This document shows, piece by piece, positions 756-42,278 of a stretch of 64,000 nucleotides of DNA. The notes below the pieces were generated by a model that worked only from the letters and a program-made list of their open reading frames with translations, was not told where the DNA came from and made no database searches. The stretch spans positions 1,742,070 to 1,806,069 of the forward strand of contig MU004236.1 in NCBI GenBank assembly GCA_010405405.1. The letters are read 5' to 3'. The translations under genes and the position numbers were made by a program. Numbering within the stretch: position 1 is the stretch's first letter; each line of letters starts with the position of its first letter. Source of the stretch: Microthyrium microscopicum (taxonomy: Eukaryota).

Positions 756-1052
756 GGATTGATATTGTATGATAGTTCTTTTTCTTTTGTGTAGATAGGA
801 ATTGTGTTTGGTTTGTGAATGAACTTAAAGATTATGTACTTGTCTATTATCTGTGATGGCCAAAAGGTATATTATATTACACATTTAACGGCGCGGCTTT
901 CTTCATTGTATAAATATCCTTTTGCCACAGGCTGGGAGACCATGTTGATGGGGGCTGTCTTCAGCTTCACATCTTCGTGTATATCGTCCTTCATGTGTAT
1001 ATCGTTCCATCGTAAGTCTAATACATCGTTCCATCGTAAGCATATCGAGTCA

Positions 1053-1350
1053 TTAAACAGAACCTAGTGGTGCATTGCATCGGCCTTCCTCCTCAAGCCA
1101 AGCCAACACATCTCGACGAAGTCCTTCCCGTACCAAGTCTCGATCAGGATGGACGTCATTGCCCGCTTCCACCAAGAAGTTTTCAGGTGCGATGCCTGGG
1201 GCGACAGATGGGAGCCAGATGCCCCGAACACTCATCAATCTCTCTATAGATCACACAAGACTAGCTCATAATCTTCAGCCTAGTAACATAGTTTCCTCAG
1301 TTATTCGTAACTTTTGGTCCAAGATTAGTCAGATCTGGGGTAGATAGTTC
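1053..1350 (-). pseudogene. Decayed C-terminal fragment of a third APH/kinase-like paralog
   Basis: ORF 1053..1238 (APGIAPENFLVEAG...DRDLVREG...VLAWLEEEGRCNAPLG) aligns by eye to the C-terminus of the 1733..4387 gene (CPQFAPKLAMKEAG...DQTIVRNG...VKIWLSTEGRADPPAG); upstream SLV*SIERL matches GLTWSMAKI with TGA at the Trp; further upstream are stops and frame changes. Confidence 0.7.
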
Positions 1351-1732
1351 ATTCAACATTACACAATATATCCTGCTACCGTCGCGGATTTTACTACCAG
1401 CGAATTCTTGTTTTCAATTCTGGCTTCGTAGGGTTGGGAGCATCGGGCAGTCTTTTCAAGCGATGTGACGGGGCGTACTCGTTTGCGTTTTAGTCGGCGA
1501 AGCGCCCGTTCTTTATCGACCAAACGCGTCCGTCAACAACATTGTTCCTGGGCGGTTCGTACATACTGCAAAGAATATGGCAAAGGTTTGGGCGTCAATT
1601 ACCAACGTCGCGGGTCTTTGTCGATGATGATATATATACTCTCGCCGAATTATGTGAGCAATTGTGCTCATTAGGAGTATTTCCTCGAATCTCCAAGTGC
1701 GCCGTTATCCTCATAAGAAAGATATCGAGCCA

Positions 1733-4387
1733 TTACTGGAACCCAGCTGGTGGATCCGCTCGTCCTTCAGTACTCAGCCAAATCTTCACCGCTTCCAAAA
1801 TCCCGTTTCGAACGATGGTCTGGTCCTGGTTAGACGAATCACCGGCTTCTTTCATCGCAAGTTTGGGTGCGAACTGTGGGCAAGCTTCGGAGACGATCTT
1901 TGCCATTGACCAAGTGAGTCCATAGCAATCGTTGTTCTTCAGCGACTCGTATATGCTGCAGAGGACATGGGACAGACGAGGATGAGTATCGGTTGCAGCA
2001 CTACCGCCGCTCATATGTTTAAGCATAGATTCTGTGAAGGCTTTGCGGTAGCGCTTTAGCTCTTCGGTGGTGCTGCCTTGGCCGTTTCGACGATCCACTC
2101 GGTTGAAGTAACCGTAGTGGAAATCTTCCCAGAGAAAGAAGGGGTAGGATGTGGACCCCATGGCTGCTGGGACTGTTGAGAGGGTGTCCCAGTCTATGAA
2201 CCCGACGACGTTGAAGTTTTCGTCGACTAGGATGTTTTGCCAGTTTAGATCCGGATGCTTCAGGACAAAGTACTCGGTGCCTGGCGAGGCATTGGCCGAA
2301 AATAGACGTTTCTTGGCTTGGAGGAGATCCATGGTCAAAGGTTCTTTCTCTAGGTGCTCGAAGCGATTGTCGATTGAATCTGGCGAGTGTTTTGGGAAGT
2401 AGAGACGTAGGATCTCGGTAGACAGCCACATTGCGGCCGTGAACAAATGGGAATCTTCGCAACCGGCACGGTACTTACATGACTCGATCAAGTGCGCGTA
2501 TTGATCGGCCAGTACTTCATGGTACTGTTTACGGCAAGGGGTGAAGTATGGCTGTTCGTCATTGCCGTGATCCCCTGGATGGTAATATGGACCGATCAAC
2601 GGCATGGCGTAGAAGTTTGACTTCGAAAACCATAAAGATCCCGCCGCAGGAAATTGCACATCCTGGAACTCGGCAAGGACACTGGCCAAGCTGTCGAGCA
2701 TGTACAGACGTTTTTGCTCTAGACTTCGGCCATCTGTTGGAGCTTTTGTCCATTCGGAAGAGAAACTTGCTCCATCCATACATTCTTGAATTTCGAATGG
2801 ACGCTTCAAGTTGTTTTCGAAAGCGTATTCGGCGGCGAGGCTGAGAGGAGCGCGGATCTTTTTGAACACTTTATTGATCCATCGCGATTGATGGCACGAG
2901 TTTTCCAATTGCCAGGCATCGATCGAGGTCCAACGCTCAATAGTCGCCCGAATATCAACGCGAACGGCGAATTTGAGTCGCTTATGGCGATTATCGAACG
3001 TGACTAGCCAAACACGATGGAAGCTGCCAGAGGTGACATAAGACATAAAATACTTCCCGTCGTTGCCATAGCGGTGGATTGGATAGGGGTATTGGCGCAT
3101 AAGATTGAGAATGTGAACGTCTTGGATGCTGTTCAATTCGTTTCCGAATCCATTGGCTGACGCTGAGATCGATAGCGGCGTGCATGGCTCATAACTGGAA
3201 TCCGTGTCATTTCCGTTGTCTTTGACGGAGATTGCTTCAACATAATTTTTGAAGACCCGGTCTAGCCGATGAAGATTTCCTCCAGTGTTGTTTACGCCGG
3301 CGGATTGGGTCTCCTTTCCAGATCCAGGCTCTGCATAGTTCGAACCAGGTTCGTGAGCTGGATCGAGACCCCAGGTGTAATCCAGGCCGTCAGAAGTAGA
3401 CTGCTCGGAATTATGAGCAAGCCCAGGGGGAGACACAAAGTCATTTTTGGTTACTTGAGGAAGTGCTTGCGCAGTGGAAGCAACATTCTCCTTAGACCGG
3501 CCCTCTGTATCTTCTTTGTTCGTTAACTTCCCACCGTCATGAAGCTCTACGAAAGTAGAAGACTGTTCGACCACAGAAGCCAGCTGTTCTAACTCTTCAG
3601 AGATAGTATTTCTATCAATATTTGGATTATCCGAAGGTCCAGTGGGTGTGGCTGACTCATGTTGCCCGGAGGATATTACTGGTGGCTCAGAACTCGATGC
3701 AACATCATTTGAGCCATGGTTTGTAGATCCAGTTGGTACTTTCGGGGCAGTGTCAGTCGACTGAGCTGTGTTTCTAACGGGCATGATGGGAAGCACAGGC
3801 GGCGTATTTGTAGCAGTTACAATCTGGGCCACTAGAGCCGGAGAATGCCCACAGATAATTGCAGTGGTGGCTGTGCCAGTGGGAGAGATCGCGTTTTTGG
3901 GTGCTTCTCGCTCTCGCAGCTTCTTGAGTTGCTTTTTGGTGGTTTGATATGCTTTCCGGACTCGTTTGGTGGTTGCTTTCCCGACTCGCAAAGCAGCCGC
4001 TCGCAGAGAAGGATCAACTGAGACAAGAAATGGGAACATCGCGAGAGTGGTTGCAAGCACAGTCTGATATGATCTTATGGTCAGTGTAGACTCAGCAGCT
4101 TGCTGGACTGGGGCTCGACCGCGATCAGAATCTACAAGCAGTGAGAAAGGAGCAAACTAAAGACTCGAATCTTACGTACCGTCGGCCTATGCCACTAGAA
4201 GAAGCTCTTGTAGAATAGAGAGAAGCGTGATTAGGGAATTGGATCTGCTATAGTCAGGGGGGTTTGTAGGCGAATAGGAACTCTTGGGAGATTTCGAGGA
4301 TTGTGAGTGCTGTTGGAACGATGATTTGAAGGAGAAGTCAGAACTATAGGTTTCAAAACTGGGAAGACGCTCGGAGTACGCGTCCAT
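1733..4387 (-). CDS. APH-family phosphotransferase / protein-kinase-like protein, copy 1 (long low-complexity N-terminus; upstream exon carries an in-frame TAG)
   Basis: GSFHRVW loop, AVRV, Brenner motif HPDLNWQN, GFIDWD. Putative exon 1 4387..4180, intron 4179..4132 (GTACGT...CTCAC...TTGTAG, 48 nt), exon 2 4131..1733, all in one frame except TAG at 4187-4189; an alternative start is the ATG of MFPF near 4039. Confidence 0.8.
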
Positions 4388-5589
4388 CCTCGAGCCATCA
4401 CTTTCTTCACCTTGGGAGACGCGAAGGCTTGTTTACCCTCCAGTCCCTGACTTGGTGAAAGCCGCGCCATACCTGGGGAGGTGCTCGTGTCTATAGCTTG
4501 GAGGTGAAGCGTCACCTGGAATTGATGGAATTGACAGAAAACAGTCAAGTCAAGTAGAAGGTGAACGATACCTAACTCAAGTACCTTATGTCATGAAACA
4601 AAAGGTATGGATGACAGGAACATGTCCTTGGGAATGATAGAGACTTTTGGAACTTCAAGGACGCTTGGGCAAGAGCAAAAGACTATGATTTTCGCGATTC
4701 AGACTGGTATAATGGAGAACCAAATTCGATCAGTACAAAACTCTGAGACGGTGATAACCTTTATACCGACAATTGAGCTCCAAGACGGTCATTATAGGCT
4801 CTTCGTTTGTGAGCTCCTAGAGATCAATTCCTTACAATGAGAGAGACAATCGAACTCGTAATCCTGGGATGTACTACTAGTACTCATGGGAGTTTACAGA
4901 TCAACGGCTATGGCACTCTGTTTCAACTATAGTTATATTGCATTTTGCAAAACCAAGTATTGGGACGTTAACTTACCCCCGGTGCTTGATATATCTCGAA
5001 AGTAGACAGGCTACTCAGTACTAATGGGATGTTCTAGCTCTTACAAACGAACTCTCTCCAATATATTATGGATGGACTTATGTCTACTAGTATATACAAA
5101 TACAACCAGCAAACTTGATAAAATCTGGAACAACTCCATTTGAAGTTTGTCTACACCTTGTCTAGGTAGATTTGTTCTAACTCATAATCGATATGACATC
5201 CCCATTTCAGCTGACACTACCCTTGACCAGTCTCCAACATGTATCCTTCGTCTATACAAAGCAATAGAGATATCTAGGCATTCCGCCCACTGATATGATA
5301 CTCCTGACTTGCCACCAACCCGCAATACCAAACACCAACGTTCTTCAGCACCAATGCTTGCTCTCAGGTACCAAAATTGCTCTAAATGAGAATGGTGGCC
5401 AATTTCCTCTTGTGAATCCGGTCGAGAACCGTGGCTCACAATTTTATTGTGGCAAACTATGAGCCACAATCTCATACTCATGGATTCAGGAGAAAACCGC
5501 CCCTGTTCCATCGTTCTCTGGCGATAAATGTCCCTCATGACCCGCTCAAAAACCGTCGTCACATGGGGAGTCGCTTTGAAGGACTCATC

Positions 5590-8500
5590 TCAATCAGTCT
5601 GATCGGGTATGTCCTTAAACTTTAGCGAATCGAGCAGCCATTGGTTGACATATCCAAATATTTTATTCTCGGCTTCTTTGGTTTTGAGGAATTTACGATC
5701 TTCCTCTGGCTTCTCACGGTTCCTCGGGTCTCCTAGCTTGGTGCTTCCTATCATAGACAACCAATATGCCGCTGCCATCTCGGGTTGGGAACTTGTCTTT
5801 GGTAAAGCTTCGCACAGGATCCGTTCCGCCAGCCAATATAAGGAGCTGGCATCATGATAACCTAAATGCTCAAAGACACCGGACATGACGTGGGAGATTC
5901 GTGTGTATCGCGTGGCATTGGACAGTTCTGGCAGGCCGCGATGTTGCGCTCTGTTATCGAAATCAAAGACATTTGCCTCACGAATGAGATTCTGAGCATA
6001 CTATTCTCGGAACCTCTCTAGGTGGGCCTTGGTGTTCTTTGAAAAAAAGCAATGGCTCTCGCAGACGCGCTCTTTGTATTGATATCGCCAGTCATAGCGA
6101 AGCCACAAGGGGTACGATGCCCAGGAAACATATTCATTGACTGTGTCAACCGTATCCCAGTCATACAAGCAAACCACGTTGAGGTTTTCATCGAGCATGA
6201 TATTTTGGGCGTCGAGATCGTTATGTTTTATTTTGAAGTTTTCCTGTTGGGCCCCATCGGTGAGGGGATGAAGAGCTGCCATGACTTGTGCGGGAGTTTG
6301 GAATGGCTGGGGGCTCTGTCGAATTGCTTCCGTGCGACGATAATAAGCTTGTTCATTGAAGTCAGGCCATATGGTCTTCATAATGGCCGAGATCAGCCAT
6401 AATGACCCTGTCTGCTTGCGTTGCTCCACCGTGTTGTTTTCGCCACGAGGAATCCGCATCTCCATGCGAGCCCAATCATCCGCCAAACGATCTCCAAATG
6501 ATGCAAAAGAGGGGGAAAATTCTGGCAGTATATTAATTTCATGGTCTCCTTCATGAAAATAAGGTCCAACCTGAGGCTCAGACTCGTCGTCTGGGAAGTA
6601 GAGAGTTCCTGCAGCATTGAAGCTTCGCGCTCCCAGTCTACTGACTTTGATTGCTAGGCTTTCCATTATGTGCTTGCGTTTCAAATCCAGAGACTGATGG
6701 ACCTCCTGGCCAGGAACGAAACGATACCACTGCGACTGTATAGATTGACCATTGATGCATTGCATAATGGTAAAAGGGCGGCCGAGAACGTTGTCAAAAC
6801 CAGAATCATAAGCGTGAACCTGAGGAGCAAGCCCATAAGTCTTCCATATCCAGTTAGAAGTTCGAGCTTGCTGCTCAAGCTTGAAAGCATCTATCGCGGT
6901 CCAGCGATTCTTTGTTGCACGAATATTGACTCGAACGGCAACCTTAAAGGGATCTGCGAATGGAGATGTTGGAGCGACGACGGCTATGAACACTCGGTTA
7001 AAAGATCCCTTAGGCTTATTATCGAGGACGATAGCTTTGGCCTGGAAGACCTGAGACAAAAGCTGGCGAATTTCTTTGTCCTTGATATACCAGAGCTCGC
7101 CCCATTTGGTCTTTTCCTTTTCATCTGGGTCTATCGCTCCGTTTTCCAGTAGGCTATCTGGCAAGTCCTCATCGGAGTCCTCGTCGGAGTCGTCTTCGGA
7201 GTCGTCTTCGGAGCTACTTGCTGAGTCCTCCTCGGAGCTATCTGCAGAGTCTTGTTGTATATCCTTAGTCGATTCCGCTGCTGACTCCTGTGCTGGAACT
7301 TGCGTCTGAGTCTCGGAACTGTTTGAGCTATCGGTCAAGCTTAGCTCTGGCGATGAGTCTGACGACCTACCAGTGGATGGAATAGTTTTGAGACCGGGCT
7401 GCGCATCGTCGTTGTCCGGAATCGAGGGTCTGACTGTAGCCTCTGTGGATACCTTCACAGCAGAGCTCTTTGGTGGTGGAAGAGTTTCAAGGCCAGGTTC
7501 GCTGGTGACAAATTTTGAGCCTCCATGAACGGAGGAAGTAGTAACTGCATCGCCAAAGTGGGAAAGAGTGGGATCTGATTGGGCGACAATACCATCGCTG
7601 TCGCCTTGATAGGATAGCGTGGACGCGACAGGGTCTGGTATTGCTGGAAGTTGCTTCGATTCTTTAGCTTCTCGCTGCTCAGCTGCCAGTTGGGAGACCT
7701 CCTCTACTAGAAGTAGCGCATGAAGAAAGAGCCGAGTAGCCCTTCGAGCAGTTTCTTCTAATCGGCTCCCAGGATAAACGGCACATGATAGATCTTCATC
7801 GGAAACGGCAGTAGATGAAGAGATGCTGCTATAGCTATTCTGAGGAGACGTATCGCCAGAGACAGGGGGTGTTGGCGGCGCAGGGCCAACGAAGTTCCGA
7901 GAAGTCGTAGAGGACAAGTCGGCTGATTTCTCGTTTGGAGACCATTCTTCGGTACTTTGGATGATGTCACTCTCCAGGGGCTGTGCTATATCTTGCTTGA
8001 GCAGTGCGTCGCCAGAGATATCGCCTTCTGAGTTACATGGCTTCGACTCGTCTTCGGGTTTGGCAGTATCCTTGAGAGTTAGGCCTGCTTTGTCGATAAT
8101 GGGCGTTTCTGTTACACTTACAGAGGGTGTAGGAGACGTATTTTCTGCTTTAGTTGACTGCAGGATGGGCTGATGGGCTGGATCTTCTGTTCCATTCAGG
8201 AAAGGGGAGGGAGAGAATTCTTTCGCATCGGATTGTTGTAGAACGGATTGCTGGGGGTGTTGTTCGCTTCGTACTGAGGAAGGCACACGAGGTGATACCG
8301 CAGCTTCAATTGGTGGTAGCAGTGGTTTTACTTGACCAATTGGACTACATGATGTAGCAGGAGGGTATGTAGTATATACTGGTTCAGAGGGGTTTGGTTT
8401 GCGGAAGGAGCCTTGCGCTTTCTTGATCGCGTTTTGCAGCTTCTTAGAGGCGCCAGTGCGGAGGATCGAGAATTTTCCAGAGAGAGTCATTGTGAAAGGG

Positions 8501-8691
8501 TTGACACGGGGGTATGTGGCGTATGGAGCCGTTTTCTTGAGGAAGACTTAAAGAGAGGGCGTCGAGTCAAAAAGGGGAGACTGCGATAGCTGAAAAAGAA
8601 GACTGCTCGGCGGTTGGGGTGTTTGTTGTGAAGGAGACTTGGAGAAGAAGAAGTCCCATAAAGAGCTGGAGAATTGACTGAGTAGGGACAT
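5590..8691 (-). CDS. APH-family phosphotransferase / protein-kinase-like protein, copy 2 (interrupted by in-frame TAG at 6001-6003; upstream in-frame TAA at 8548-8550)
   Basis: GSFNRVF, AVRV, HNDLDAQN, CLYDWD. Frame continues past the TAG (RFRE*YAQNLIREA...RISHVMSGVFEHL...WLL) into ORF 5590..5886, homologous to the copy-1 C-terminus (RYRKAFTESM...RLSHVLCSIYESL). Main ATG at 8490; in-frame upstream ATG at 8691. Confidence 0.8.
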
Positions 8692-10223
8692 GGCGCGATG
8701 AACAGGTAACCATTGGCGTCGCTTCAGTGAAAGCTGAACGCGTTGAATGTTTTGAGTTTGAGGTGATGTGTACGCGACACAAACGTGGAGAATTTCAAGG
8801 TTGATACGAGAATAAACAGGTTAACGTTGGTGAAGACTGAGTAACGATATTATATAAGAAGAATACTACGTAGATACGACTTGCTTGAGGGCATAGTCGC
8901 ACCGTGCTTGATCGTCTTATGCGATATGATAAGGCCGTGATGATAGAGCGCACAAGTGGAATCTCGTCGCCGCTGGTCATAGAACGAGCACCGGCTGGCT
9001 GAACAATCGTGTTCAAGCGACTATATAATCTGCTAGCAGGCAAAAGCCTTGCCCTAGAATGCTCAACGTAGTCCAAGGCTAGATGTACTTATCCGCAGTA
9101 TGTTCTTGATCACTAAAAGGACTAACACTCGTTAACGCGGTACAACTCTCTAACAACATGGGGCAAGTCTATCAAAACCAAGAACGCATACAATTTTGAG
9201 CTTGAACTGTACATCGACCTGTAAATAAGCAGAAGTCCATCTCATTAGGGTCTGTAAGAGCCATGGATTGCCTTGAAGTGAGGTGTTACCTTATATACCC
9301 CCAACACTGAGCAAAAGATCCGCCGGTCATCCTGTAAGATGTCCAGAGTTAGGCTGCTAGATTTTGAAATGATATCAAGTCTAAGTATGTCAGGTGGTGT
9401 TTACATTCAAGGGGTAGTTGAGAAGCAAAGCATCGAGCGCAAGCTGTGACCAAACTCGATGTTGGTGTAAAGAGCTGCCTAGCTGGGAATATCGGTGAGA
9501 GATATTTGGAAACTAAACAGGAAATCCAACAAAGTCTTCATTGAAGACAATGAAGCATCAATTTGTTTGTCTCAACCTCAAAGGTCTTTCACAAGGACAT
9601 TCTCGATGCTCCGAGGCCATACCTGTCGTCGGGCTTTCGTAGTTGTCCGACCTTCTTATAAGGTAGTATTAGTTATGACGTATAAGATAAAAGAATTGGG
9701 AGAAAACAAGTCATAAATTCTTCAGTATGATTTGACCTTTGACTTCGCGGTTTGTTTACAATCATTCCATTATCTCGTGCTTACCAGACCCTCAAATAGG
9801 GGTTACTTGAGAACAGAGAGAACATCTGACCAACATTGACTTTTTCCAAATAATTTATGCTGTAAGGAATTTGATGATGGAATAAATTGAGGATTCAAAG
9901 CTAGATTTCTTCTGTTTGTTTTGAGACAGAAATACTGAATTAGTAAAGAATCCTCGAGAACCGATCTCGGCCGTGACATTCTATCCAAAGTCATGATGTG
10001 GATATGGCTTGGAATGCTTACTTCATCGCTTTCGCCGGCTGTCGAAGTCCATCTCCGCGGAATCAATAGACCTTTACAAATAACCTTAATTTCTGGATGG
10101 AAATATTGGTCATCTTTTTGAAGCCTTGAGTAACATTTTGGCGCCATTACGTCGCAGTGATATGGTATAATTTGCCAAAATTGTCCCTCACAGAGGATCA
10201 GCGAAACCGTCAACAACTGAACA

Positions 10224-36878: not shown

Positions 36879-39803
36879 CCCTTACTACGTAGTAGACATT
36901 ATGGCGCTTCGCCACCTGTAAGGGTTCTACCACCGTAATACTAAAGCGGTTACTACACATACAATTCTTGTAGGGAATGTCTAGTGGGCTATTTACTAAA
37001 GGGGCGTTTAATTTGGAAGATATCTTGAGATCTAGATATAATAAAATAGTGAGATTTCTGGTATTAAGATGTTACTACTACCTAATCCTTCTATTAGTGT
37101 CTACGTAATTATTAGAGCCTTCTATTACTATATAATAAGTTAGCTAATTCTTATCTAAATAAGATATAAATTATATGCTTATAATGCTTATAGAAAGGAC
37201 GAAAACATCCTATATAAAGTAGGTAGTAATTAAGACATTTTGTATAATAAAACTATGTTTTTATAACGTGTCCTTATAAATAGTTTTGATACTTCTTTTA
37301 TTAACAAAAGAAGTAGTATTTATAACTACTCTATAATATAACTGCTATAGTATGATTACCTACAGCAAGTTAAGATCCTAAAAGTTTAGTGTCTATAGTT
37401 ACTCTTTTATAGAATCTATTATTTTGAATCTACTTAATCTTTTTAGTCTGATTTGAATTGATAAAGTCTATAGTGAATTTAGGTCCTTCTTCATTAAGCA
37501 TACTTTGCATATATAAATTCCAAGCTAATAATACGCAGTATTGCCTTAGATTTAAAGGATATTATAAAAAATACTTTTTAGGAAGTCGTGCGAGTAGAGG
37601 CTATAGCTTAGCTTTAATCGCTTAAGCTAGCATATTGCTATTAGTAGTAGTTACGTTAACTTCAAAAAATAATAAAGGTATCCAGTTTTTGTTACCTAAA
37701 CAAATATGCATTAGTATAGAATTTTAAGAGCTTTTAAATAGTACTATTTTTAAGAAAATTGGACTAAAGATAAGAAAGCTAAAAACTCTAGCGGCGTTCT
37801 TACTAATTTAATGTGCTATATAATATAAGCGCTGCTAGTCTGCTAGATTAACCCCATTTATATAAGAATTATATTTAATTATAACCACAGGTTGTTCTAG
37901 TGTTTTATAAGACTTAGAGCCTTAAAGACGATTAATTTCTTGCTTCTTATAGCCTATAGTCTTATTAAGAATTGCAGGCTTCGTTCTAATAGCTTTTTTA
38001 GTTGTACTAATACTATAATAAGTTGTTAAGAAGCGTATAAGAATATAATCTCGCTAGAGGAGAGAGAAGATATCTTAAACTACCTTTTTATCTGTTGTCC
38101 CCCATGGCTACTTATTCGACTTCTTCTCTATTAAAGCGTATTATTTAGGGTATTCTTTTTGATTAGTATAGGTAGTTTCTACAGTAGCTATATCGTAAAA
38201 ACGAAGCGCTGAGAATAGGCGTATAGAACTAAAGAAGTTATTATAAAAAATAATGAAGTTCTTTACGTCGTTAGGTAGAGATAGATATAGCTAAATAATG
38301 GCCCGCGCTATAGGCGTTAATTTAGTAAAGAATACGGGATAACCTTCTAGTAGACTTTATGAAAGCTTGTAGGTAGGAATATCAACGTTTTCGCTAGTAT
38401 GTTATGGTATGCCGCTACGGGTCGTATATAATAGGTCGTAAATATAGCTATGATTATATAAAGCAAGTATTTTATACCCCTTTGAGATTAGTTTACCCTT
38501 AATATATACTATATCTTTGGATCTGCCTATAAATTTTACTATTATCTTATTAATCGCGACGTGGCTTAATGGTATAATATACTCTTTAAAACGACGAAGT
38601 AGAGTAGAGGATAAGGGCTTAATTTTGGCAAAAATAGGTTCTGTAGGACGAGCTGAAGCTGCTAAAGACGCTTTAGTAGTTAATAATGAAGTTATAAAGG
38701 CCTTTATAGGAATTGGGCTAAGATGTAGATATTTCTTAATCCTCTAGAACCTAGCAGCGGGTATAAATGCTTAAATTAAGTAATAGGGATTAATACTATC
38801 TTAGGTCTATAGGTTCTTGATCTTTAAGATAGAATAGGCCCTTAGATAGATATAGATTCTAAAGAATATCTTAATGTTACTAATACTGATTAGATTAGGA
38901 ATAGCTTTAAAGGGAGGAATATCGTCCTTTAGGCGTATATAATCTATAGTGTTTTGAAAGATTTCTATAAAGTCTTTATGTTTAAAAAATAGGCTAAAGA
39001 ACAGTAGTAGTATATTAAATCTACTTATTAGATCGTTAACGCTAATAGGGCGAGTTTTATGGACCTATAGAGCAATATCTATGGTTCTAAAGCTAATTTT
39101 AATAGGAATTCTTTATAGAGTTCTCGTAAAAGGATTAAAGAAGTCTCTTAGTAATTGTAGCTATATTTTGGTATATTCTAGTACTAGCATTAGGTTGAAC
39201 TTATATTTATCGTATCTAAAAACTATTGGTTTACCCTCTATCTCTTGAACATTGAGGGCTTCGCGCTTACTAGGTAAGGGCTAACGGTTAGATAGAGATG
39301 TTAGAATAGGCCTATTGTCTTTAGAAGGCTAATTATCTTGTTGTTGCTTTATTGCTTCTAAAAAGGTATTCATTGAATTAGGCAGATTGCAAGCTTTAAA
39401 TTTAATATCGTAATATATAGATTCCTTATTAATCTATTACTAGAGTAACTTAGGATTAAATTCTATATTTGATATCTTGAGGGTAGTTGTATGAAGTGGT
39501 AAGAAGAAGAGGAATAGGTAAGGGTGAAGAGATTATAAAAAACTTAGAAATTTCATTACTAAAGGACTATAGTAGTAATTTAATACTAAATCTTTTGGAA
39601 ATTCTATGACGTATATAGCTTAAAAGCGCGCTTCTAATAAGCACAATTTTGTTAAGGGCAATGAATTAGGGGTTAAGAACAAGTAGTTGATTAGCGCAAA
39701 AATAAGCTTCGCTATTCTCTCACGACTCTATAATATTAGGCTAGATTGGGTAAGGCGCCCGTGCGCTAATGCAGTGTCTACTTGGGATTCTACGTAGTAA
39801 GGG
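36879..39803 (-). mobile_element. piggyBac-like DNA transposon, inactivated by RIP
   Basis: Perfect TIRs CCCTTACTACGTAG (36879-36892) / CTACGTAGTAAGGG (39790-39803); AT-rich, TpA-rich interior; minus-strand relic reads FFSLFF, IKIFFRIYIYL, RF*RIKKYLHLS, PLSHVAINKIIVKFIGRSKD..IKGKLISKGYKILAL (AAT AAG ATA ATA reverts to DEMM) and FYNNFFSS (DNFF), matching piggyBac DDD transposase motifs. Confidence 0.85.
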
Positions 39804-42278
39804 ATAGAGCTACGCGGTCCTGCATGAGGTCTGGCCAGTGGTAGAGGTCAGAGCTCGTGAGCTCCACTATTAGGCTGTGAGCCCTCTTTGGAGTTGCTTG
39901 ATGCTAAGAAGCTGCTGTACAGTCCACTATTGATATACTTCTTTACAACGTAATTTTTTTGCTAATGTGCTATCGTCTTTGATTAGAGTTTAGACTACAA
40001 TACAGCATACACTTGTCATAACATCCATTTCTGCTATAAAAGACGAAGCAAAATAGAGGTCATGAATGTGGCCAACTCCAAACAGGTTAAACCAATGTTT
40101 TAGCGCCCTAAGCTAGCCCACATATAGATTCGTTTCCCCCCTTCTGACAGCCTTGCACGGCCCTTGAGCCCCCTTTCCATAGTCTAAGAGTCTCCATGAT
40201 CTCCATCGGGGTATCTTGATGTCGACTGAGCATCCCTCTCCAGTGTCCATCCACCCGGTTACGTTGCGCTTAACAAACACCGATATACCTCGAGCACTGC
40301 CTGCTAGGCTACCCCAAACCTAGTGCATCTGCTCAACTCCACATGTAAGCATACCACCAATCCCTGTATCCAGAAGGTAGTGTTTCCCGCGCCGTGCTAT
40401 AACAGCACAGTACTACTACTAACAGTTGAAAATTTACGCCCGAGTTATGGCGTACAATGACTAGTTTCGATTCTGCAGGACGCCGAAATCGAACTTGCAC
40501 ACATGAGGAATGTCGCTCAATCGATGAAAGATGACCGTATTGATCCCTCTTCCGATAAATCTGCAGTCGGATATTGACTCTAGACTTGTAAGGTTGGTAG
40601 CCGAAACCTCGCTTTTTTTCATACGCTTGCTCCCGCGTTCTTGGGTTGCACATAAACGCGCGTTGGACCAAAACTGGCAATTCTACGACTGGTTTATCGT
40701 TCATGTGGCTCGAATGGAGTTAGTAGACTTTACAAAAGCGGTCAAACTCACACATCGGTCTGCATATTGTCGGAAGCAAGGGAGAGCATTCAATAAGCTG
40801 AATTTCGTTCTTCATGGATAGTTCGACATGTTACACAGATGTCGGAGAGGCCGGTGAACCTAATCCAACAAGAGTAGCATTTCTCGGAAACTGAACAAGT
40901 CAAAGAAAACAGAACAAATTAGGTGGGAGAAGTGTCACACCCGCTCTACCAGTACTCCTCTTCATCATCTCAGACATTTTCCAGATAATTCAATCTTGGA
41001 CACGTTGTATAGATAGAACGCACAGAGCGTATAAAGGTTTTGTGATATTGAATTCGTGTGTAGCATGAATTTGCTCATCCTAGTCATATCTGCCAAAACC
41101 CATAATCATATGCAACCCACATAATTCTTTCCAGCATCAGATCGTCTGCTCTAGCAAAAAGCCATCTACCTTTCTCCGCACGCCATCTTGCGGATAATCC
41201 GATCTGTTTGCATCAAGAACCAGCCATCTATTGCTCTGTGCGCCTGCTCTCGCTGCCTTTCAGCCTCGTTGGCGTGCTCCCACACTTCCTATCAACTACG
41301 ATCACCCGCGAACACAATTTCCCCGCACAGTTGACATATACGCAGTCTGGCTTACTGCATTACAGACTGGCTGTAAAGTTCGAAAATCAATCATCCCATG
41401 TGAAAAAGTGAATCAATCGAGTACAGTAAGCCAGTCATTGTACGCTATATGCCAACCAGCCTTCTCGAACAAGACTAGCACATCCACCCAGAATTGTACC
41501 GCATCCTGTGCCCTGAAGACAAGATACATCATTGTCACCGTGCCACGTGTGTAAGCGGCAGGGTTAAAGAAGTTGTTGTGCGTTGCTTAATGGACTCTAA
41601 CGTCGCGACATATCCCCTTGCCTGCGGAGGTACCCGTGCGCCATCCCGCGCTTCGTGCCGCGCAGTCCTCGTCAAGTCATGGAGTATAATTCTCTCGCCG
41701 ACTTGAATGAATTGATTACGCCGACGATTCTCTATGGAGTGACGACTTGCTTATTGGCAGGTGAGTTGTGTGTGTGTTGCGCTAGTTGGACCAGCGGTCT
41801 TAATACATGTGATATAGGGATCTCAAACACGCGAATGTTTGAAATTGTTTTCTAGATCGTGGCGATTAGACCAATAAGACGACTTCAGAGGTGAACAAAA
41901 AGTAGCTCAAGTGGTCTAGGCGGAAGCACCATCCGAACAGCCCGCTATGAATCTCCTCTCGAAAGTGGCAGGAAGAAATTCTCCGCTGAGCTATAGATTC
42001 CTTGATGTTTGACGCTATCACTATAGCAGGCAGTACTAAGCTCATCTGACATATCAACGGCAACGCCACATCAAACAGATCACGCAATGTACTGACCAAC
42101 GAACAGCAGCCAAAGTCCCTCTTTGTACTCCACAAGTCCACAAGCAACAGATCATCAGCAACCCCTCCCCCATCCAGGCTCCTAAGTGGTACATCGAGGA
42201 AACATGCCCATGAACTCCTGCAGACTTCTGCGCATCCTAACCTCCTCACCATAGCGAAAAGAGGGAGAAGTTTTTTCT

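Follow-up and report, generated by a model that had tools for sequence, protein, structure and literature searches.

A single in-frame TAG in one of two APH-fold kinase-like paralogs of Microthyrium microscopicum, probably a young nonsense allele hidden by an annotated intron

In-frame UAGs within conserved coding sequence are known from the premature-stop-correction (PSC) genes of Fusarium graminearum and Neurospora, among them the kinase-like PUK1, and single disabling point mutations in multi-copy families are known from young unitary pseudogenes of lineage-expanded fungal families. Here we describe a gene that resembles both. It lies in a 64,000-nt stretch of contig MU004236.1 of Microthyrium microscopicum (assembly GCA_010405405.1, positions 1,742,070 to 1,806,069), hereafter called the window, to whose positions all coordinates refer. 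Two neighboring minus-strand genes, copy 1 (1733..4039) and copy 2 (5590..8490), encode kinase-like proteins with an aminoglycoside phosphotransferase (APH) fold. Copy 2 is interrupted solely by a TAG (6001..6003, minus strand) at codon 830 of 966, which is probably a young nonsense allele that the public annotation masks with an artificial intron. A sequence-only reading of the window had proposed an array of genes gated by four stop codons. The present result is mostly a correction: the supposed stop-gated array shrinks to a single nonsense codon, which affects one of the paralogs.

The relation of copy 2 to the PSC genes should be noted. As in those genes, the A of the stop is placed in a predicted hairpin loop with U at position −1, and an intron seems to have been added by the annotators, as far as the PSC genes are described in the available text of PMC4817773 and PMC11156358. 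Contrarily, the host of copy 2 is a Dothideomycete, and its stop is known here from DNA, with no A-to-G change observed. Copy 2 has a single UAG, whereas PUK1-type genes have a tandem UAG UAG, and has an APH fold, whereas PUK1 is a eukaryotic protein kinase. With the young pseudogenes it has in common a decayed fragment next door; it differs from them in that relaxed constraint downstream of the stop has not been detected so far. The known APH/choline-kinase-like kinases (3dxp, choline kinases, APH(4)-Ia, and 25-hydroxy-steroid kinase) have a bilobal fold with a C-terminal helical subdomain, which the model of copy 2 shares. However, identity to the solved APH-type structures is just 8-14%, with TM-scores of 0.3-0.5, and both copies, unlike these kinases, have long non-conserved N-terminal regions (~325 residues in copy 1 and ~480 residues in copy 2). 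Unlike for the APH namesakes, there is no indication of aminoglycoside resistance for either copy.

In the window translation, from which all stop-to-stop open reading frames (ORFs) were read, copy 1 lies in a minus-strand ORF of 807 residues (1733..4156) and copy 2 in one of 848 residues (6001..8547), the same frame running on over 5590..6000. The coding sequence of copy 1 (768 residues, ATG 4039-4037, TAA 1735-1733) is intact and agrees from MFPFLVSV onward with the public model P0003, which is also 768 residues long; its kinase-like domain occupies approximately residues 326-768. Copy 2 has 967 codons (ATG 8490-8488, TGA 5592-5590) as judged from the public model P0001 and the alignment of paralogs, and its kinase-like domain of 486 residues is encoded by 7050-5593. 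The C-terminal halves of the two copies (~450 residues each) are 31% identical over 419 residues (E = 5e-54). The two co-oriented paralogs proposed from the sequence alone are thus present, and their catalytic motifs are seen intact in the translations: HPDLNWQN and IDWD in copy 1, and HNDLDAQN and YDWD in copy 2. Both copies have the HxDxxxxN motif and the metal-binding Asp, and across 61 sequences conservation reaches at least 90% at D278, at N283, and at D297-W298-D299. In Pfam, the APH family (PF01636) matches copy 1 with 32.9 bits, above the cut-off of 23.2, and copy 2 with 20.0 bits, below it, both matches spanning only the catalytic-loop segment.

The fold of copy 2 was examined with an AlphaFold2 model of its domain, which has a predicted local distance difference test score (pLDDT) of 87.5 and a predicted template modeling score of 0.88. 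A Foldseek search with this model matched 93 PDB chains at E ≤ 1e-3, led by 3dxp (E = 8e-7), and all of the matches listed are APH, choline-kinase, steroid-kinase, or related small-molecule kinases. By sequence, no PDB entry matched at E ≤ 0.01. When 1.84 billion representatives were searched with a profile of three paralogs, 1603 proteins matched at E ≤ 1e-3, and the neighbors in the ESM Atlas are ascomycete clusters named APH-domain or kinase-like proteins; no characterized close relative was found in the profile and PDB searches. These comparisons point to an ascomycete family of APH-fold (aminoglycoside-phosphotransferase/choline-kinase-like) proteins resembling small-molecule kinases, of which copies 1 and 2 are old and diverged paralogs.

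The TAG at 6001..6003, with its A at 6002, is flanked on each side by homologous coding sequence. In a longer stretch, copy 2 reads KAHLERFRE*YAQNLIRE where the paralog P0002 reads PYLDKYREWYAQYIEE, and in a shorter stretch HLERFRE*YAQNL faces LDKYREWYAQYI of P0002. The stop corresponds to residue 350 of the 486-residue domain, within a predicted helix formed by residues 341-367. The part downstream of it (136 codons, 5593..6000, minus strand), which is open and in frame and aligns with the paralogs, corresponds to the C-terminal helical subdomain and is modeled with pLDDT mostly above 90. Four of seven runs were compared: X1 and X4 (DNA), X5, and X6. None of the seven is recorded as RNA, though X6 contains one spliced contig and so holds RNA. 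Contigs from X1, at depth 100, and from X4, at depth ~1079, cover 1000-9200 and show no difference at 6001-6003, the DNA contigs at both ~100x and ~1000x agreeing with the stop. X1 and X4 probably derive from the assembly's own sample. From this agreement, the TAG is not an assembly slip, but it may be a mutation specific to the culture.

The other three stops can be explained without any recoding, by leader starts and a shared C-terminal end. All four stops lie where the sequence-only reading had placed them, and neither frame has a frameshift. The claim that they break the reading frames holds for the TAG at 6001-6003, whereas it does not for TAG 4187, TAA 8548, and TGA 5590, and the idea of a stop-codon-gated array fails at these three of the four, two being in 5' leaders and one being a normal terminator. 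The ATG that P0003 uses for copy 1 (4039-4037) lies 148 nt downstream of the TAG at 4187-4189, and the ATG that P0001 uses for copy 2 (8490-8488) lies 58 nt downstream of the TAA at 8548-8550. Both stops are 5'-leader stops that end upstream ORFs outside the proteins. TGA 5590 is the natural stop of copy 2, because copy 1, P0002, and the further paralog P0004 all terminate within a few residues of the alignment position of 5590-5592. A stop like TAG 6001 is uncommon here: in the six frames of the window, only three have at least 100 open codons on each side (TAG 6001, TGA 5590, and TGA 48115).

We favor the reading that a recent loss-of-function point mutation hit a redundant, lineage-expanded family and would have made copy 2 a young pseudogene or a truncated allele, and that the sequenced culture is fixed for this allele. 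Lying at codon 830 of 966, the TAG would cut off the last 136 residues, which form approximately five helices of the C-terminal subdomain. The disabling mutation itself is present in the DNA contigs; neither relaxed constraint nor further lesions are found downstream of it. Several comparisons suggest that the stop is young and stays unrescued. Family members die at this locus, as judged from the decayed third-copy fragment that adjoins copy 1. The family has four models (P0001, P0002, P0003, and P0004) on one contig of 2,415,436 bp, and hence at least two further paralogs beyond copies 1 and 2 on this 2.4-Mb scaffold. The alignment column of the stop (copy 2 and 74 hits) holds D in 18 sequences, A in 11, V in 10, I in 8, L in 5, F in 4, W in 3, Y in 3, other residues in 12, and X in 1. 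With W in 3 of 75, the column is variable, and Trp is therefore not demanded there. P0004 has a Tyr in this column, the codon of which is one transversion from TAG.

The public model P0001 is 945 residues long and lacks exactly FRE*YAQNLIREANVFDFDNR, owing to a 63-nt intron (5951..6013, minus strand) recognized by comparing P0001 with the window translation. The intron has GT...AG ends, with GTTCCG as the donor and AACAG as the acceptor. The removed segment holds a YRxxYA motif that is at least 90% conserved in 61 family sequences. This intron is probably a gene-caller device to avoid the stop, and P0001 thus probably contains an invented intron.

The two remaining paralog models should also be described. 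P0004 (BT63DRAFT_440860, on the same contig outside the window) is the closest paralog of copy 2, with 49% identity over 356 residues. It aligns with copy 2 to two residues beyond the stop column, and then the model jumps ~80 residues to the C-terminal tail. The P0004 model may dodge a lesion at the same place as the copy 2 stop, and, if the copy 2 stop were corrected by editing, P0004 could be a second such case, its model breaking at this very place. P0002 (BT63DRAFT_456342, 1324 residues, also outside the window) has a long N-terminal part with hydrophobic stretches joined to the kinase-like part, whose N-terminal motif starts only at approximately residue 720 (MPQLKDIRVAAARFREATKK); the model may fuse two genes.

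Several observations weigh against a young nonsense allele. The stop is placed in a predicted RNA hairpin (5983..6019, minus strand) with a stem of 10-12 bp and a 1x1 internal loop, and the UAG lies in its 9-nt loop, AAUAGUAUG (6005-5997). The 81-nt fold's minimum free energy (MFE) is −25.1 kcal/mol (z = −3.63), and none of 200 dinucleotide shuffles is as stable. Among the 1639 TAG triplets on both strands of the window, 443 lie in hairpin loops and 30 in a hairpin at least as stable, placing the copy 2 stop in the top ~2%. Synonymous recodings of the same peptide reach the MFE in 9 of 2000 cases and the hairpin in 26 of 2000 (top 1.3%), and the aligned site of copy 1 has no comparable structure (z = −0.75). 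A UAG in such a hairpin loop is the context preferred by fungal adenosine-to-inosine (A-to-I) editing. The triplet is TAG, neither TAA nor TGA, and P0002, the closest full-length paralog, has a Trp in the stop column. The 136 codons after the stop contain no second stop or frameshift, and their codon score (0.146 bits/codon versus 0.220 upstream) is still coding-like. In a crude three-paralog comparison of branch lengths on either side of the stop, the copy 2 branch takes a share of 0.17 after the stop versus 0.25 before it (96 and 332 columns), a weak test with saturated distances. Low-depth contigs of X5 and X6 cover 6572-7648 in copy 2 and 5208-5462 just beyond the TGA, with none over 5658-6479, and copy 2 may still be transcribed.

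The sequence-only reading had taken relaxed selection downstream of the stop as a sign that would speak against recoding. Such relaxation is seen neither in the codon score nor in the branch share, the latter being only a weak test with its saturated distances. An undecayed downstream part is compatible with a stop of very young age as well as with translation that continues past it.

Continued translation could be achieved by A-to-I editing, in which the UAG would be converted to UGG during sexual development to give a full-length protein of 966 residues with Trp830, and the kinase-like protein would be gated to the sexual stage. Vegetative cells would then have only a truncated product or one targeted by nonsense-mediated decay. 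The gene would behave like PUK1 and ~70 other edited-stop genes of F. graminearum. We consider this unlikely, though it survives better than the other alternatives described below. The site combines an in-frame UAG in conserved coding sequence, U at −1, and an A in a stable hairpin loop, and the U at −1 and G at +1 match the Fusarium preference. According to the available text of PMC4817773, U is found at −1 in 85.7% of F. graminearum sites, the most edited triplets being UAG and UAA. The same text locates 62.4% of the Fusarium sites in hairpin loops, with stable hairpins being edited better. A6002 lies in the loop of a hairpin in the top ~2% of window TAGs. The Trp of P0002 in the stop column and the lack of decay in the 136 post-stop codons are likewise in line with editing. 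So is the stop-avoiding intron of P0001, which resembles the annotation of Fusarium, where annotators are described as having inserted such introns in 69 genes with edited stops (PMC4817773, available text).

The evidence against editing begins with the template, since the contigs covering 6001 come only from the DNA runs X1 and X4. The stop column is variable, with W in 3 of 75 sequences, and the closest paralog P0004 has a Tyr. The other three stops (4187, 8548, and 5590) are not within such hairpins. Single-stranded hairpin loops may also be hotspots for C-to-T deamination in DNA; if so, the hairpin itself could have favored the mutation to TAG, which would weaken it as evidence of editing. 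The host is a further difficulty, since no report of A-to-I mRNA editing in Dothideomycetes was found in the literature searched. In the available text of PMC11156358 and PMC11087585, such editing is documented in Sordariomycetes and in one Pezizomycete, Pyronema, and is said to have been detected in neither Aspergillus nidulans nor Botrytis cinerea. The Ame1-Tad3 interaction underlying it is reported there to have evolved within Sordariomycetes, and PMC11087585 proposes that duplicate Ame1 orthologs may mark lineages that edit. Thus, editing appears absent from the Eurotiomycete and the Leotiomycete examined, and the known machinery appears to be a Sordariomycete innovation.

In sequence and in structure, the TAG at 6001 nevertheless bears the complete signature of an edited stop and offers a cheap single-amplicon test in a Dothideomycete. 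If editing were true, sexual-stage mRNA recoding would for the first time be evidenced in Dothideomycetes, which would become the third lineage with such editing, and this would point to a separate or much older origin of fungal mRNA editing. If the result were negative, copy 2 would be a young pseudogene. On the likeliest reading, a young nonsense allele, the finding is an ordinary one.

The possibility that the 63-nt intron of P0001 is real, as a newly intronized piece of exon whose in-frame excision takes out the stop together with 20 flanking codons to give P0001, is much less probable than editing. The intron is part of the public annotation, has GT...AG ends and a length that is a multiple of three, and is of typical fungal intron size. 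However, its donor GTTCCG has neither the usual purine at +3 nor G at +5. The donor is also unlike those of six other introns in the window, which begin with GTAAGT, GTACGT, GTGAGT, or GTGAGA (GT[AG][AC]G[TA]), one of them being supported by a spliced X6 contig and five being deduced from the sequence. The sole branch-like motif (ATAAC) is only 3 nt from the acceptor, and the donor lies within the predicted hairpin stem. Furthermore, the 63-nt segment is coding in all paralogs and includes the YRxxYA motif. An alternative donor overlapping the stop, TA|GTATGC, was considered and rejected; its only in-frame acceptor recreates a TAA.

Translational readthrough of the UAG, programmed or leaky, would yield some full-length protein and is about as improbable as a real intron. 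The downstream frame is intact and coding-like, as readthrough would require. Known readthrough contexts include UGA-CUA and UAG-CAR-YYA, and the context found here, UAG-UAU-GCU, is unlike them. Stimulatory structures are normally located downstream of the stop, whereas the predicted structure here surrounds it.

The least probable origin of the TAG is repeat-induced point mutation (RIP) or an error in assembly or sequencing: a change from TGG to TAG turns TpG into TpA and a RIP-like AT-rich block lies at ~37,000-40,000, but the indices of both copies are of the non-RIP type, a lone transition is not assignable to RIP, and an error is excluded by the 100x and ~1000x contigs, which have no variant at the site. 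TpA/ApT is 0.59 in copy 1 and 0.65 in copy 2, and (CpA+TpG)/(ApC+GpT) is 1.27 and 1.36, respectively, so both copies fail the thresholds for RIP (above ~0.89 and below ~1.03, respectively). RIP needs repeat copies far more similar than the 31% protein identity observed here. RIP, which the sequence-only reading had named as the competing cause of the stops, is therefore unsupported, with both copies being non-RIP in their indices and too diverged. The probability outside the readings considered here is left unassigned.

The AT-rich block at ~37,000-40,000, which is ~30 kb away, has a GC content of 0.25-0.39, TpA/ApT of 1.35-1.58, and (CpA+TpG)/(ApC+GpT) of 0.38-0.92. It meets the RIP thresholds and is likely a RIP-degraded repeat.

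The upstream ORFs ending at the two leader stops were compared with the proteins. That of copy 1 (66 codons, 4187..4387, minus strand) begins at ATG 4387-4385, ends at TAG 4189-4187, and has a codon score of 0.097 bits/codon; a contig of the RNA-type run X6 lies on 4327-4516, over this region. That of copy 2 (47 codons, 8548..8691, minus strand) ends at TAA 8550-8548 and has a codon score of −0.028 bits/codon. Neither score exceeds a weak coding signal. The two are unlike each other and unlike all 150 family proteins (best E = 0.37), and a Pfam search with both gave no match. The distant relatives P0005 and P0006 likewise begin slightly before the same basic N-terminal motif. N-terminal extensions of the proteins through TAG 4187 or TAA 8548 were accordingly rejected: the added parts show no conservation and no Pfam match, the models and relatives start downstream, and neither stop lies in a comparable hairpin. 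The 5' leader of copy 1 also contains a candidate 48-nt intron (4132..4179, minus strand; GTACGT...CTCAC...TGTAG), placed from the sequence. It is canonical-looking and holds two in-frame stops directly upstream of the long ORF.

Past its natural TGA, copy 2 is followed by 135 further open codons in the same frame (5182..5589, minus strand). This length is reached by 50 of the 5592 inter-stop stretches in the window, the codon score is 0.027, and the translation has no homologue and no Pfam match in the searches made. A contig of X6 lies on 5208-5462, inside this stretch, which is probably a 3' untranslated region. A C-terminal extension past TGA 5590 was rejected in view of the missing homologue, the near-zero codon score, and the paralogs ending there.

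Relatives of copy 2 are few in the collections searched. In a word-index protein search, its closest database matches are only two NCBI proteins, both from one contig of Microthyrium microscopicum. A search with P0004 found only P0004 itself, and one with a 111-residue query centered on TAG 6001 found nothing. In the metagenome protein scan, 96 pattern stretches were matched and 0 were confirmed, and a metagenome scan with a 26-nt pattern that accepted either A or G in the stop gave 0 matches. No ortholog of copy 2 was found in these collections.

Within the coding sequence of copy 1, the deep DNA run X4 splits into short alternative contigs at 2569-2659. The minor forms have depths of 6-49 against ~860 and differ by one letter each, indicating a bubble due to a low-frequency variant or error; there is no such bubble at TAG 6001.

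The third copy noted in the sequence-only reading exists as a fragment, though it is only a weak C-terminal relic found by tblastn in two minus-strand pieces, 1062-1199 (39% identity over 46 residues, E = 3e-5) and 1403-1591 (30% over 63 residues, E = 3e-4). A plus-strand X6 contig at 996-1216 joins 1011 to 1068, skipping 56 nt (intron 1012-1067, GTAAGT...CTAG). Because this contig skips 1012-1067, the relic is overlapped antisense by a spliced plus-strand transcript, which is probably the 3' end of a gene with a HAD-like hydrolase segment at 3-755. On the other side of copy 2, the genes at 10221-62881 form a context ordinary for a fungus and encode a nitronate monooxygenase, an MFS transporter, a Rua1-type regulator, an ING-domain protein, a DEDDh exonuclease, a glyoxal oxidase with WSC domains, and a peroxidase.

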